Shown here: one piece after another, positions 4,089 through 10,608 of the stretch
Layout: each line of letters starts with the position of its first letter
Position numbering within the stretch: the stretch's first letter is position 1
DNA from: a virus
Taxonomy: Duplodnaviria > Heunggongvirae > Uroviricota > Caudoviricetes
Length of the DNA: 19,938 nt
IMG/VR virus record: IMGVR_UViG_2737471861_000023
Reading direction: 5' to 3' (one strand)
The notes under the pieces: model-generated
Told to the model about the DNA's origin: nothing
What the model saw: only the letters and a program-made list of their open reading frames with translations
Database searches by the model: none
Program-made: the position numbers and the translations under genes

Positions 4089-4269
4089 AGGATGATCCTT
4101 TTTCTATGTGAATCATCACCACTGCTGACGCCAATCAGTATGGTGGTGAACTGTGCAGGGTTGGCGTAACCGGGAAAAAGGAACCGGCGCGGATCGCTCC
4201 GCCCCCACACAGCCCACCATTGAGATGTGACAGTGCAAACGACAATAAAAAAGACGCTGGCGCGTGAGG

Positions 4270-7224: not shown

Positions 7225-7380
7225 TTACTCCTCAGGTTCGTAAGCTGTGAAGACAGCGACCTCCGTCTGGCCGGTTCGGATTCGTACCTCGCAGAGGTCT
7301 TTCCTCGTTACCAGTGCCGTCACAATGACGGTTAAACAGATGACGATCAGGGCGATTAACATCGCCTTTTGCTGCTTCAT
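7225..7380 (-). CDS. hokD: Hok-family type I toxin, 51 aa (HokD/RelF-like)
   Basis: Translation MKQQKAMLIALIVICLTVIVTALVTRKDLCEVRIRTGQTEVAVFTAYEPEE matches HokD/RelF as recalled. Confidence 0.9.
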   Translation of the reverse strand: MKQQKAMLIALIVICLTVIVTALVTRKDLCEVRIRTGQTEVAVFTAYEPEE

Positions 7381-7560
7381 AGCCTGCTTCTCCTTGCCTT
7401 TCGGCACGTAAGAGGCTAACCTAGATTTGCCGTTCATAGATTGAGCCTCAGATTAATGTTAAGCGTCTTGCAGGACGCGTAATGTTAACTGGGGCTTTTC
7501 TCTATCTGCCTTTGGTGTTCATGCCTGAGGCAGATAGCCTCAATCACCCGCAGCAATTCT
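7381..7560 (-). promoter_or_regulatory. hok mRNA leader: in-frame 19-codon upstream extension (mok-like, ATG at 7437 with GAGG SD), 9-bp inverted repeat 7502..7510/7529..7537; Sok antisense not confidently placed
   Basis: ORF track 7225..7437 is in frame with hok; inverted repeat read from sequence. Confidence 0.4.
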
Positions 7561-7681: not shown

Positions 7682-7995
7682 GACAACCTCCTGTATTGGA
7701 CGTACACCAGTCCTGATAAATATGAGGCTGTCTCATCATTGATTCAATATAACTATTGGGTATAGTTTCTGTGATTTTGTTCTGTAGAAATGGAACACAA
7801 CAACCAGTCTCCACCAGCACTTCTTTAAATACGCCAAGTCCGACGCAAGCTAACCTTCTAGTCCGCTTTGAGCGAACTGTGGAAGCTCGGAAATGTTGTT
7901 ACATCTGATGAAGGCATTACTCAAAGGAGGGGATAGTAGTCAACGTGGAGCAGGCCATGTTAGTATTTTTATACAATTCGACTAAGGGAAAAACA

Positions 7996-8865
7996 ATGAG
8001 GCTTTACATAATAGGAAATGGATTTGACATGCGTCATGGCTTACCAACAGGATACAAGCACTTTAAGTCGTATGTAGAAAAAAATGACCAAGATCTATAT
8101 GACGCGATAGAAGAATACATTCCTGCTGGGGACGAGTGGAATGAGTTAGAAAATGCTTTAGGTGAAATTGATTATGAGCTTATCCTTCAAAACAGTGAGA
8201 TATTTTTGGCTTCATACAATACCGATGATTGGAGCGATGCTTATCATCACGATTACCAATATGAAGTAAATAAAATCACACAAATGCTGTCAGCTCGTTT
8301 GAAGGAGCAATTCGCTGATTGGGTTAAAGGGATTAACATAGCCGATGCTTACAATCCTAAGCAATACATCCCGCCCATACCAAGAGAAAGCATCTATTTT
8401 TCATTTAATTATACAAATACCTTGCAGCAGATCTATGCCGTTCCAGACGAGCAAATCATACATATTCACGGCAATTGTAGTTACGATGACGATCTCATAC
8501 TTGGTCATAGTTTTAGGGTGGAAAAGTCACTAAATCCATATATAGGACCGGATCAAGATACAAGAATAGCAGAGGCATACGACAGAATAAACGAATACTT
8601 CGGTAATACATTCAAGCCCAGCGAAGACATAATTAAAGAAGAAAACGTTTTTTTCTCATCGCTTAAAAATGTGGACGAGGTCATCGTTTTAGGCCACTCG
8701 CTCGCCGAAGTTGACGGTGAATACTTTACTGAAATAAATAAAAGTATCCAAGAAAATGCTCGATGGATAATTGCTTTATATAGAGGTGAGAAAAAATCAG
8801 GCAGTTTAGAAGATTATGGTGTCAGAGGCTCAAATATTTCTTACGTACAGTATGAAGATATCTGA
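7996..8865 (+). CDS. AbiH-family abortive-infection protein homolog, 289 aa
   Basis: N-terminus MRLYIIGNGFDMRHGL carries the GNGFD motif I recall as diagnostic of the AbiH family; AGGGA SD; gene is AT-rich by eye. The track ORF start at 7945 (GTG) is considered an artefactual extension. Confidence 0.75.
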   Translation: MRLYIIGNGFDMRHGLPTGYKHFKSYVEKNDQDLYDAIEEYIPAGDEWNELENALGEIDYELILQNSEIFLASYNTDDWSDAYHHDYQYEVNKITQMLSARLKEQFADWVKGINIADAYNPKQYIPPIPRESIYFSFNYTNTLQQIYAVPDEQIIHIHGNCSYDDDLILGHSFRVEKSLNPYIGPDQDTRIAEAYDRINEYFGNTFKPSEDIIKEENVFFSSLKNVDEVIVLGHSLAEVDGEYFTEINKSIQENARWIIALYRGEKKSGSLEDYGVRGSNISYVQYEDI

Positions 8866-8954
8866 ATGAGACTTCATATTATAACTATAATTATGTAAAA
8901 AAGGCTGGTATTTTATACCTTGAGGAAAATAGATAAGAGGAATGAGGTTTGGTT

Positions 8955-10346
8955 ATGATGAATTATACTGATGAGTCAACTTTTCTTGAAAAGTACAAAC
9001 CGTTTAGGAAGTTTTGGACAATTTTATCACCTCATTATGTATCTTTAATGCATGCACTTGCCAAAATGATAAGGGGAGGGAATCCAATTCAAGAACTACC
9101 TTCCAATGATGAGGATTTTCTTGCAGAGTATGAAACCTGTCTCAAAAATTGGAAAGACTCACAAAAAATCATATCTTTTGAGATTATTATTCGGCTGAGA
9201 GATATAAAAAGATTGGAAACTGAAAAAAAAGAGCACCATCGAAACAAGGATAAAGAAAATAAAGAAAAGTGTATTGATGAAATAAGTTTAAAAAAAATTG
9301 AAATTCTTATTCTTCGCCGTTGTATTGACTCAATAATTTGGAGCATTCTTGATGAAGAACACTCTAGTTTGCGGCGTTTACCTATTAATGCAAGCAATGA
9401 CAATCTATCAGAAGATAACATAATTGATTCTATGGTCGCAGCCGATCTTATCAACCAGGACAAACACTCCGTAGCGATTGTCTCTGACATGAGCACATTT
9501 GTTCATGTGGGAGATTTAGTCACCTTTAATCTACTGGATGGCTTCCAGCTCGTGGAAGTTAAAACAGGTGAAAAGAATAATGAGCTTTATGAAGCTGCTG
9601 AATTTTCTGTTATCTCAGAATGTCCGCACTTTGAAGAAAACTTCATTAACAATATGCCTGACAATGATGTTAAGCAATTTAATCGCATAAAAAGGCAAAT
9701 CATTCGTGGCATGAATGTTCTGGAGGCGATTAATACTGGCGAGGGCTTTGACAACTTTCATCAGTCTAAAGTTAAAATCAATGAGATAGATCATCCGTCT
9801 GAATTTTATACCCACCGCTTAGTTAAAATGTGGGAGATTATTCGCGGAGGAAAAAATTGGGCAATTGATACTATTGATGAATGTTTGTTCTTAGGTATGT
9901 ACCGTGATTCTGAAATGGGCTTTGTTGCCTTCAATGGATGGATGGATAGTCTCGGTATAAAAAGCCCTGTTGTGAATATAAATGATTCATTCTTTGACCC
10001 TTTGTCTCGACCATTTATGAGTTTGCATCTGCCAACTGAAATGCTCTCCGATCTCATGTCGGGACAAATAATCATCGTCATGTGTTTTGACAATGAACTT
10101 TTTTTTCACCGTGCTAACAAAACGTACCCGGGTTTATATCTCCTTAGCGATGCAGCAAGAACAAAGCAGCCATTAGAAAATATTCTTCGTGTTGGTTCAC
10201 AAGGGATAGCTTCTTACGTAGATGGGAATACCAGCTTTTTAGGTAATGGTATTGAATCCCGTATCCTTTTCGATCAGCAACGACCCGACAACATTATTGA
10301 GTGGAGCTATGCTAGAAGCGATCTCAAAAAGCAACATGAAGCATAA
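8955..10346 (+). CDS. Hypothetical 463-aa protein co-transcribed with the AbiH homolog; candidate PD-(D/E)xK nuclease core (VHVGDLV...LVEVK) and Lys/Glu-rich region
   Basis: ATG at 8955 with GAGG SD, 89 nt after the AbiH stop, same strand; motif D189-x13-E203-V-K205 (track numbering) at nt about 9500..9565; no family recognised. Confidence 0.7.
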   Translation: MMNYTDESTFLEKYKPFRKFWTILSPHYVSLMHALAKMIRGGNPIQELPSNDEDFLAEYETCLKNWKDSQKIISFEIIIRLRDIKRLETEKKEHHRNKDKENKEKCIDEISLKKIEILILRRCIDSIIWSILDEEHSSLRRLPINASNDNLSEDNIIDSMVAADLINQDKHSVAIVSDMSTFVHVGDLVTFNLLDGFQLVEVKTGEKNNELYEAAEFSVISECPHFEENFINNMPDNDVKQFNRIKRQIIRGMNVLEAINTGEGFDNFHQSKVKINEIDHPSEFYTHRLVKMWEIIRGGKNWAIDTIDECLFLGMYRDSEMGFVAFNGWMDSLGIKSPVVNINDSFFDPLSRPFMSLHLPTEMLSDLMSGQIIIVMCFDNELFFHRANKTYPGLYLLSDAARTKQPLENILRVGSQGIASYVDGNTSFLGNGIESRILFDQQRPDNIIEWSYARSDLKKQHEA

Positions 10347-10608
10347 GCCGTTGGATGGGATTTCCCATGAATTGCCATGGATAATCTAGACACTTCGAGC
10401 CGTTGATAATGTTGATTTTCGTATTCTGTCGGTGGAGTATCCCGAAAGGTATAGAGCAAAACCTGGAGAAAACACACAGCATCCCATTTTAATCTTTAAC
10501 TCTGACCTTCCATAATGTCCGCTGTTGGCACAAAGCGGACAACCACGCTAGCTCTACCCTGTGCCACAAAATGTCAATTTGCATCTGAACTAATGCACTT
10601 TAATCTCG

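Follow-up and report, generated by a model that had tools for sequence, protein, structure and literature searches.

AbiH (PF14253), which has abiH of L. lactis as its prototype (Prevots et al. 1996), is a family now classed in the literature as SIR2-like; in Vibrio, it has been validated as a system of one gene, and there are small phage-encoded inhibitors of AbiH. Two-gene SIR2 systems, such as Thoeris ThsA/ThsB, SIR2-HerA/Nezha, PD-T7-2, and short pAgo-SIR2, consist of a SIR2-like protein and a second, co-oriented defense protein, and this partner is required and co-conserved. Shedu (SduA) and NERD are single-protein defenses in which a PD-(D/E)xK core lies among variable helical domains. 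DS-37 (SC24/DS-37, protein WP_000982358.1) comes from DefensePredictor (DeWeirdt et al., bioRxiv 10.1101/2025.01.08.631726, January 2025; Science 2026, PMC13092281), where Tables S6 to S9 record it as a one-CDS system, defensive TRUE and replicated TRUE, with −log EOP values of 4.32 on Bas69 and 1.94 on SECphi27. The clone lacked AbiH, its vector (pCV1) has no promoter, and the insert extended upstream at most to the next gene, yet it was protective; alone DS-37 is active and tolerated in MG1655 (PMC13092281). The same source annotates DS-37 as PD-(D/E)xK (HHpred NERD 0.47). Within its searchable text, mention of DS-37 is confined to the supplementary tables, with no discussion of the adjacent AbiH or of the gene neighborhoods and mechanism of the family.

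An AbiH gene and a DS-37 gene stand side by side in a Qin-like lambdoid E. coli prophage (Caudoviricetes; IMG/VR record IMGVR_UViG_2737471861_000023), of which a 19,938-nt stretch, called the window here, was analyzed. The pair is on the plus strand between hok/sok and the replication genes, while the left neighbors, hokD (7225 to 7380) and the sok RNA (7375 to 7549), and the right neighbors, DUF977 and the replisome organizer (from 10614), are all on the minus strand, as the preliminary description had stated. A blastn block of 2415 bp that is common to SSU5-like phage-plasmids at 93% nucleotide identity delimits the two-gene cassette at 7959 to 10368. Consistently with the reported AT-richness, this region has a GC content of 36.8% versus 47.2% in the remaining window and is the lowest-GC 2.4-kb stretch of the window. 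The interpretation of the cassette as an acquired, AT-rich moron was upheld.

Both open reading frames had been listed with longer starts, at 7945 to 8865 (GTG) and at 8949 to 10346 (TTG); internal ATGs at 7996 and 8955 are better starts. The former yields a 289-aa AbiH form, whose Pfam match begins at residue 3 and whose length fits most homologs, and the latter is the RefSeq start of the 463-aa protein. The RefSeq ATG of gene 1 at 7957 is excluded because the DNA block shared with the phage-plasmids begins only at 7959. The resulting co-oriented genes, 7996 to 8865 and 8955 to 10346, are separated by 89 nt (8866 to 8954) and each is preceded by a ribosome-binding sequence (AAGGGA ahead of 7996 and GAGG ahead of 8955), which confirms the coordinates, the gap, and both Shine-Dalgarno sites described before.

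Gene 1 (7996 to 8865, plus strand) is a member of the AbiH family, as proposed from its IIGNGFD motif. The match to PF14253 is full length (model positions 1 to 258 of 260 on residues 3 to 259; E value of 7.8e-69) and, at 233.1 bits, exceeds the cut-off of 30.9, and PHROG 19951 was matched with an E value of 1e-180. The glycine-rich GNGFD motif of AbiH is found at the N terminus (MRLYIIGNGFDMRHG) and is kept in a 90%-identical homolog. Like other AbiH proteins, the gene 1 product is a single-domain protein of ~290 aa that is found on mobile elements and can occur solitary. It is only a distant relative of the lactococcal prototype, and the PADLOC AbiH model covers only residues 100 to 267 (1.2e-27); at this locus, it is encoded directly upstream of DS-37. 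By analogy with its family, the gene 1 product is predicted to be a SIR2-like enzyme. The mechanism of AbiH, previously regarded as a blank, is thus no longer one, given the SIR2-like classification and the one-gene system validated in Vibrio.

Gene 2 (8955 to 10346, plus strand) is DS-37: 462 of its 463 residues are identical to WP_000982358.1, the sole difference being I115F, the lengths are the same, and nothing substantive sets the two apart. At least one complete genome carries exactly WP_000982358.1 at the same E. coli prophage locus. Since gene 2 is the published, replicated single-gene defense DS-37 save one residue, it can no longer be called undescribed. The view of the locus as an anti-phage cassette holds; both genes look like defense genes. 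The spacer at 8866 to 8954 (plus strand) contains TATAAT (8886 to 8891), a module junction (8892/8893; see below), and the gene 2 ribosome-binding site. It probably also contains a gene 2 promoter, because the promoterless DS-37 construct, with DNA at most up to the preceding gene, still defended; in a promoter and terminator consensus scan around the cassette, the number of sites was within the shuffled-sequence range and not significant.

The motif hVGD-x13-EVK, on which a PD-(D/E)xK nuclease core had been proposed, is found at 9513 to 9563 of gene 2. Its residues D187 (9513 to 9515), E201 (9555 to 9557), and K203 (9561 to 9563) are invariant in an alignment of 104 diverse homologs with a mean column identity of 27%, as are D178, G205, R244, and Q248; judged from this alignment, the conservation of the triad is far above chance. 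(The triad was earlier numbered D189/E203/K205, higher by 2, because the count was made from the TTG at 8949 and not from the ATG at 8955.) A putative PD-(D/E)xK core spans residues 153 to 262 (9411 to 9740, plus strand). In the AF2 model it comprises a helix (153 to 167), three strands (172 to 176, 188 to 192, and 196 to 200), and further helices, including 206 to 221, a predicted order that fits alpha-beta-beta-beta-alpha. Upstream of this core, the Lys/Glu-rich region described as a probable coiled coil is predicted to form a long antiparallel helical hairpin (residues 52 to 132; 9108 to 9350, plus strand), with helices 52 to 96 and 100 to 132 modeled at a pLDDT of 90 to 97. A C-terminal alpha/beta domain, delimited from the model and the alignment (residues 263 to 463; 9741 to 10343, plus strand), has no recognized relatives; its conserved residues include G264, D266, G314, Y316, P353, G432, and P444.

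Fold searches with gene 2 matched no PD-(D/E)xK enzyme of solved structure significantly, its profile search of Pfam, NCBIfam, PADLOC, and PDB sequences gave no match, and a family profile (A2) found nothing among PDB sequences. Of the nuclease proposal, the motif and its invariant triad stand, and the nuclease fold was not confirmed by fold and profile searches. Homologs of ~680 aa are extended at the N terminus, but the extensions have no Pfam match and so reveal no partner by fusion. With Shedu and NERD, which gene 2 resembles as a single-protein defense with a putative core of this type, there is weak profile similarity only (SduA_C in 4 of 104 members, with a best E value of 0.013; PADLOC SduA in 2; NERD 0.47) and no significant sequence or structure match. 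In addition, the putative core of gene 2 lies centrally and not at the C terminus, and neither its helical hairpin nor its C-terminal domain of 200 aa has an equivalent in those proteins. A relationship to Shedu was not reproduced with clade consensus sequences or core-only fragments and is a lead only.

The cassette is composed of two modules with separate boundaries. Blastn breakpoints at 7860/7869 and 8892 (against L052 to L054 and L060) define an AbiH module at 7860 to 8892 (plus strand), which spans 136 nt 5′ of the ATG and 27 nt past the stop codon, and the DS-37 module follows at 8893 to 10368, with the recombination junction 8892/8893 lying between the genes. Providencia, Morganella, and Dickeya have the AbiH-only block at 89 to 93% nucleotide identity but no gene 2 beside it, and AbiH proteins with 91 to 92% identity occur without gene 2 in Morganellaceae and Dickeya. 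Natural knockouts exist in both directions: several genomes have an IS1 in AbiH next to an intact gene 2 (WP_000982358.1 in at least one of them), and an IS1B disrupts gene 2 beside an intact AbiH. Partial E. coli matches (first 623 or 287 nt), considered as AbiH with alternative partners, are IS3/IS1 truncations in decaying prophage. The partners do not co-occur across the phylogeny of either family: most gene 2 lineages sampled have other partners or none, and close relatives of AbiH are found without gene 2. Gene 2 is therefore not co-conserved with AbiH homologs, contrary to what the preliminary description expected of a two-component system; nor does it belong to a characterized non-defense family, because its characterized family is itself one of defense.

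In one enterobacterial lineage only, the pair travels as a unit among prophages and phage-plasmids at 88 to 93% nucleotide identity. A block at 7861 to 10541 is common to a Klebsiella lambdoid prophage (88.5% nucleotide identity), and the pair is conserved in 65 of 5426 E. coli genomes. Between pair copies, AbiH and DS-37 are equally diverged, with 90% and 91% amino acid identity, respectively. The persistence of the pair despite ~10% divergence and on mobile elements unrelated to one another speaks against independence of the two genes, and their equal divergence also fits coupling.

The DS-37 family comprises about 680 clusters at 50% identity, and most of the gene 2 homolog lineages sampled are solitary or beside other defense genes. 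Solitary homologs occupy three sites in P2-like prophages, and others are carried by small or IncP-like plasmids or lie in chromosomal islands; P0006 and P0042, the nearest outgroups of gene 2, are solitary plasmid genes. Some homologs come after PD-T4-5-like Abi_2 or PDC-S19 genes, and others adjoin GajA or HEC-08. Placement 18 to 89 nt downstream of single-gene Abi-type genes (AbiH, PD-T4-5-like Abi_2, and PDC-S19) is recurrent, and a pair of Abi_2 and a DS-37-like gene is kept between two lineages at 57%/43% identity. Between the DUF3644 and Abi_2 partners, no relationship to each other was detectable. No DNA or protein match to either gene was found in 50,697 isolated phage genomes; thus, the cassette is a trait of prophages and plasmids. 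A search of a word-indexed database with profile A2 recovered the close clade only and did not extend the family, and a search of genome contigs with a further profile (A3) gave only 6 loci. The repeated docking of DS-37 homologs 18 to 89 nt after Abi genes, like the persistence of the Abi_2 pair, is a further observation that runs against independence.

Taken together, the locus very probably holds two independent single-gene defenses side by side in a Qin-like prophage and no new two-part system. The moron would be a small defense island that arose when two autonomous anti-phage modules of one gene each were joined. By analogy with its family, AbiH from the first module (7860 to 8892) would be a SIR2-like enzyme and abort infection by depleting NAD+. 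DS-37 from the second module (8893 to 10368), with its predicted hairpin, its central PD-(D/E)xK-type core (D187/E201/K203), and its C-terminal domain, would most likely cleave nucleic acid after a phage-specific trigger. Both genes are presumably expressed in the lysogen, without cross-talk between the two proteins. The pair would have been maintained and passed on jointly within a single enterobacterial lineage although neither gene needs its neighbor, probably because the prophage gains from two layered, complementary defenses. Two-gene SIR2 systems resemble this arrangement in the co-orientation of a SIR2-like protein and a second defense protein; unlike in those systems, the two genes occur separately here and DS-37 is active alone, and gene 2 matched none of the PADLOC models of those systems.

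The strongest challenge to independence is a functionally coupled pair, in which synergy or a guard arrangement lets the two genes do more than either alone while each stays self-sufficient; DS-37 would fire if phage inhibitors block AbiH, or the NAD+ loss caused by AbiH would license the nuclease. The co-transfer of the pair as a tightly bounded block into a lambdoid prophage and phage-plasmids is consistent with such coupling, as are the equal divergence of both proteins (91% for gene 2), the recurrence of DS-37 homologs 18 to 89 nt after AbiH, PD-T4-5-like Abi_2, and PDC-S19, the conservation of the Abi_2 and DS-37-like pair across 57%/43% divergence, and the existence of small phage inhibitors of AbiH. 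However, DS-37 defends by itself, most of its sampled lineages, including the nearest outgroups (P0006 and P0042), are without a partner, and Morganellaceae carry a 91%-identical AbiH on its own. As the upstream partners also have unrelated folds and independent defense genes normally cluster in such islands, coupling is unlikely. An obligate two-component or toxin-antitoxin pair, with AbiH sensing infection or neutralizing gene 2 and the nuclease as its dependent effector, would account for adjacent, co-oriented genes of equally low GC content that are kept together in the 65 E. coli genomes. However, MG1655 tolerates gene 2 by itself, with the gene active there, each gene is widespread without the other, and the recombination junction lies between them, which makes this arrangement very improbable. 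The toxin-antitoxin variant is rejected because insertion sequences have disrupted each of the genes next to an intact copy of its neighbor, and the earlier picture of an AbiH homolog wired to a nuclease effector is not supported.

A similarly faint chance is left for gene 2 being first and foremost a selfish homing-type endonuclease, free-standing and restricting phages as a side effect. Such an element would fit a lone, tightly bounded gene that recurs at several intergenic positions unrelated to one another, both on plasmids and in P2-like prophages, and that has a PD-(D/E)xK-type motif. By contrast, a gene of this kind is hard to reconcile with zero matches in the isolated phage genomes, with homologs that sit at known moron and defense hotspots by Gabija, PD-T4-5, PDC-S19, and HEC-08, with a length of 463 aa and extra domains that are unlike known homing endonucleases, and with the restriction of unrelated lytic phages by DS-37.

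With two independent defenses as the preferred reading, the cassette is a known, ordinary mini defense island, and it carries little weight as a discovery because the AbiH family is named and gene 2 lies within one residue of the validated DS-37. It is a rather speculative thought that DS-37-type nucleases are a portable "second layer" that docks after single-gene Abi effectors and cooperates with the upstream gene. The docking partners may be AbiH/SIR2, PD-T4-5-like Abi_2/HEPN, and PDC-S19/DUF3644, and DS-37 might, for example, fire on phage inhibitors of the upstream Abi protein or on its NAD+/RNA damage signal. If this were true, AbiH and DS-37 would form a coupled, broader-range system though each part can act alone. 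Concrete mutants and constructs for work on the trigger and mechanism of DS-37, and a cheap test of synergy between adjacent prophage defenses, are provided by the module boundaries (AbiH at 7860 to 8892 and DS-37 at 8893 to 10368), by the residues that are invariant in the DS-37 family, and by its sites at three P2-like hotspots, on plasmids, and on phage-plasmids, together with its recurrent placement after one-gene Abi systems.

A Qin-like lambdoid prophage of E. coli, integrated beside rspB, contains the window; strain MDR_56 carries an annotated copy with 99.8% identity. In MDR_56, lysis genes, an antiterminator, RusA, DUF968, and hokD lie on the left side, followed on the opposite strand by genes for an AbiH family protein and for a protein annotated as hypothetical, beyond which are DUF977, a replisome organiser, YdaT, repressors, dicB, an exonuclease, xis, and int. 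The ORF listing of the window contains both genes of the preliminary description, gene 1 (7996-8865, +) and gene 2 (8955-10346, +; 463 aa), separated by 89 nt and lying on the opposite strand to the neighbors on either side. The AT-richness of this cassette was also borne out, as its GC content is 36.8%, against 47.2% elsewhere in the window, and no other 2.4-kb stretch of the window has a GC content as low.

The ATG starts chosen originally have the best support: RefSeq begins the 463-aa protein at 8955, and 7996 gives a 289-aa AbiH form, as in most homologs, with the Pfam match beginning at residue 3. The RefSeq AbiH protein WP_001297700.1 (302 aa) starts at the ATG at 7957. This start is probably 13 codons too long, because the DNA that phage-plasmids and other elements share with the window starts at 7959, past the position of that ATG, most homologs are 289 aa long, and an AAGGGA ribosome-binding site lies upstream of 7996.

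Gene 1 is an unambiguous AbiH family member (Pfam PF14253, E 7.8e-69 across the whole model; PADLOC AbiH, 1.2e-27; PHROG 19951). The preliminary description treated the AbiH mechanism as a blank, but the literature now groups AbiH with SIR2-like immune proteins and proposes NAD+ depletion (2026 review, 2024 preprint); going by those papers, gene 1 would have a SIR2-like fold. In Vibrio, a single-gene AbiH system has been validated; it gives 5.7 logs of protection and is countered by two small phage inhibitors.

In E. coli copies, gene 2 has the RefSeq accession WP_000982358.1, from which the window protein differs only by I115F. The DefensePredictor study (bioRxiv, January 2025; Science 2026; PMC13092281) lists this accession in its supplementary tables. 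Table S6 lists it under the working id SC24 and the name DS-37, as a single 1392-nt CDS from an E. coli assembly with the status “defensive TRUE” and “Predicted novel defense gene”; Table S7 gives -log EOP values of 4.32 for Bas69 and 1.94 for SECphi27. Table S8 records SC24 as replicated and labels it PDDEXK through an HHpred NERD match at residues 154-204 (probability 0.47). In the main text, proteins of this kind are grouped with PD-(D/E)XK nucleases that have a predicted core alignable to EcoRI, and the text searched contains no discussion of DS-37 itself. In the HHpred sheet of Table S8, two trailing columns, apparently ExK and D positions, look row-shifted: some positions exceed the length of that row's protein (e.g., 412-414 for a 332-aa protein), and 201-203/187, an exact fit to DS-37, is printed in the RED7 row, with 210-212/199 in the SC24 row.

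DefensePredictor transcription units join genes ≤30 bp apart, and the cloned inserts carried 200 bp upstream, or only as far as the next gene, in pCV1 without a promoter upstream of the insert (PMC13092281). AbiH was therefore absent from the DS-37 construct, and by the published assay gene 2 defends alone. Given a promoterless vector and an insert ending at the next gene, we infer that the 89-nt spacer must hold the gene 2 promoter. The system is thus not undescribed, since both cassette genes belong to described systems, AbiH and DS-37.

Searches of Pfam, NCBIfam, PHROGs, PADLOC 2.0, and PDB sequences gave no match to gene 2. The word-indexed search yielded just 48 clusters (Enterobacterales and Aeromonas), and an exhaustive profile search gave 682 family representatives at E≤1e-3 (502 at E≤1e-10), nearly all 430-500 aa long. 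Aligning 104 diverse members gave a mean column identity of 27% and only eight invariant columns: D178, D187, E201, K203, G205, R244, Q248, and P444 (numbered from the ATG at 8955). The AlphaFold model (pLDDT 84, pTM 0.86) predicts a long helical hairpin (residues 52-132), a helix (153-167), strands at 172-176, 188-192, and 196-200, more helices, and a C-terminal alpha/beta domain; D187 begins strand 2, and E201/K203 lie at the end of strand 3. Four of the 104 members matched the Shedu nuclease domain weakly, a signal that consensus queries did not reproduce.

The pair occurs as one block at 93% nucleotide identity over 7959-10368 in SSU5-like phage-plasmids (Enterobacter, Klebsiella, Raoultella), and at 88.5% over 7861-10541 in a Klebsiella lambdoid prophage, in the same position beside replication genes; the two proteins have diverged equally (90% and 91% identity). 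Two lineages (L002, 4918-7395; L013, 4911-7473) keep a PD-T4-5-like Abi_2 gene with a DS-37 homolog after it, at 57% identity for Abi_2 and 43% for the DS-37 homologs, which points to either long-term linkage or repeated capture. Both patterns would fit functional coupling (synergy) of AbiH and DS-37, and the joint travel of the cassette also agrees with selection to keep the two layers on one element. Coupling is nevertheless unlikely, given that DS-37 homologs occur alone or beside other defenses and close AbiH relatives lack gene 2. Lone homologs occupy three P2-like prophage sites: the S-like/V gap (L016, L039-L040, L046-L051), after gpU/gpD (L005-L007, L033-L038), and directly after cI-int (L041-L044, L048). 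The E. coli clade has its closest outgroups in two solitary plasmid-borne homologs, one on a small Mob plasmid and the other on an IncP-like one, and further lone homologs are found in Yersinia, Pseudomonas, and Rahnella elements. Where a homolog has an adjoining gene, this is another known or candidate single-gene defense: PD-T4-5-like Abi_2 in Pantoea and one other lineage, PDC-S19/DUF3644 in Dickeya, HEC-08 (downstream) in Rahnella, and an adjoining Gabija in Aeromonas. Conversely, several islands of Providencia and Morganella, as well as Dickeya, hold a gene 1 relative of 91-92% identity but no gene 2; the DNA shared with these AbiH-only loci runs from 7860/7869 to 8892, 27 nt past the AbiH stop, placing a recombination junction inside the spacer.

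An obligate two-component system of AbiH and gene 2 is highly improbable, as DS-37 defends without AbiH from the promoterless construct and each gene is found intact where the other is disrupted. At one E. coli locus IS1 splits AbiH and gene 2 is intact as WP_000982358.1, and in a different strain IS1B splits gene 2 and AbiH is intact; neither gene is therefore the antidote of the other. The cassette is under frequent erosion in E. coli: the full pair is kept in only 65 of 119 genomes with a match, and the 54 partial matches are remnants truncated by IS1 or IS3; several loci of intact length are interrupted by IS1 within AbiH or gene 2. Comparative evidence thus stands against the wiring of gene 2 to AbiH in the preliminary description, whose functional guess was otherwise largely right.

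In the preferred reading, the prophage would express two independent defenses from one moron. AbiH may be a SIR2-like NADase that aborts infection, as its family suggests; DS-37, sufficient for defense (PMC13092281), would cut nucleic acid at the D187/E201/K203 site after a phage cue, its hairpin and C-terminal domain possibly serving regulation or oligomerisation. What remains of use is the delimitation of the two modules, the set of residues invariant across the family, the map of hotspots, and the repeated placement of DS-37 after an Abi gene.

The block directly adjoins hokD, between it and the replication genes, and the complete hok/sok locus (hokD CDS, 7225-7380, −; sok antitoxin RNA, 7375-7549, −; Rfam, 101.6 bits) is divergent from it. 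A C4 antisense RNA (RF01695, a P1/P7-type immunity RNA; Rfam, 74 bits) lies inside the lambdoid prophage at 4139-4224 (−), near the annotated tRNA-Met of the reference copy. In the Klebsiella lambdoid prophage (L056, 1503-2864), the pair has additional neighbors: an HD/HD_assoc (dGTPase-like) gene lies on the opposite strand at a distance of two genes upstream, with DinI-like and LexA-like genes next, making the locus there a larger defense cluster. The homologs at the three P2-like moron sites (33-50% identity) are always a lone gene; the one at the cI-int site starts 3 nt past the integrase stop and is thus probably expressed from the lysogenic operon. A few distant members carry an N-terminal extra ~250 aa (P0164, P0165, P0167, and P0184, ~680 aa; P0135, 569 aa) that has no Pfam match and may represent a sensor or partner domain joined by fusion. 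On a B. cereus plasmid (L024, 4983-6046), a distant DS-37-like gene (26% identity), frameshifted into two ORFs, adjoins an ABC-three-component system and a reverse transcriptase, extending the family to Bacillota defense islands.
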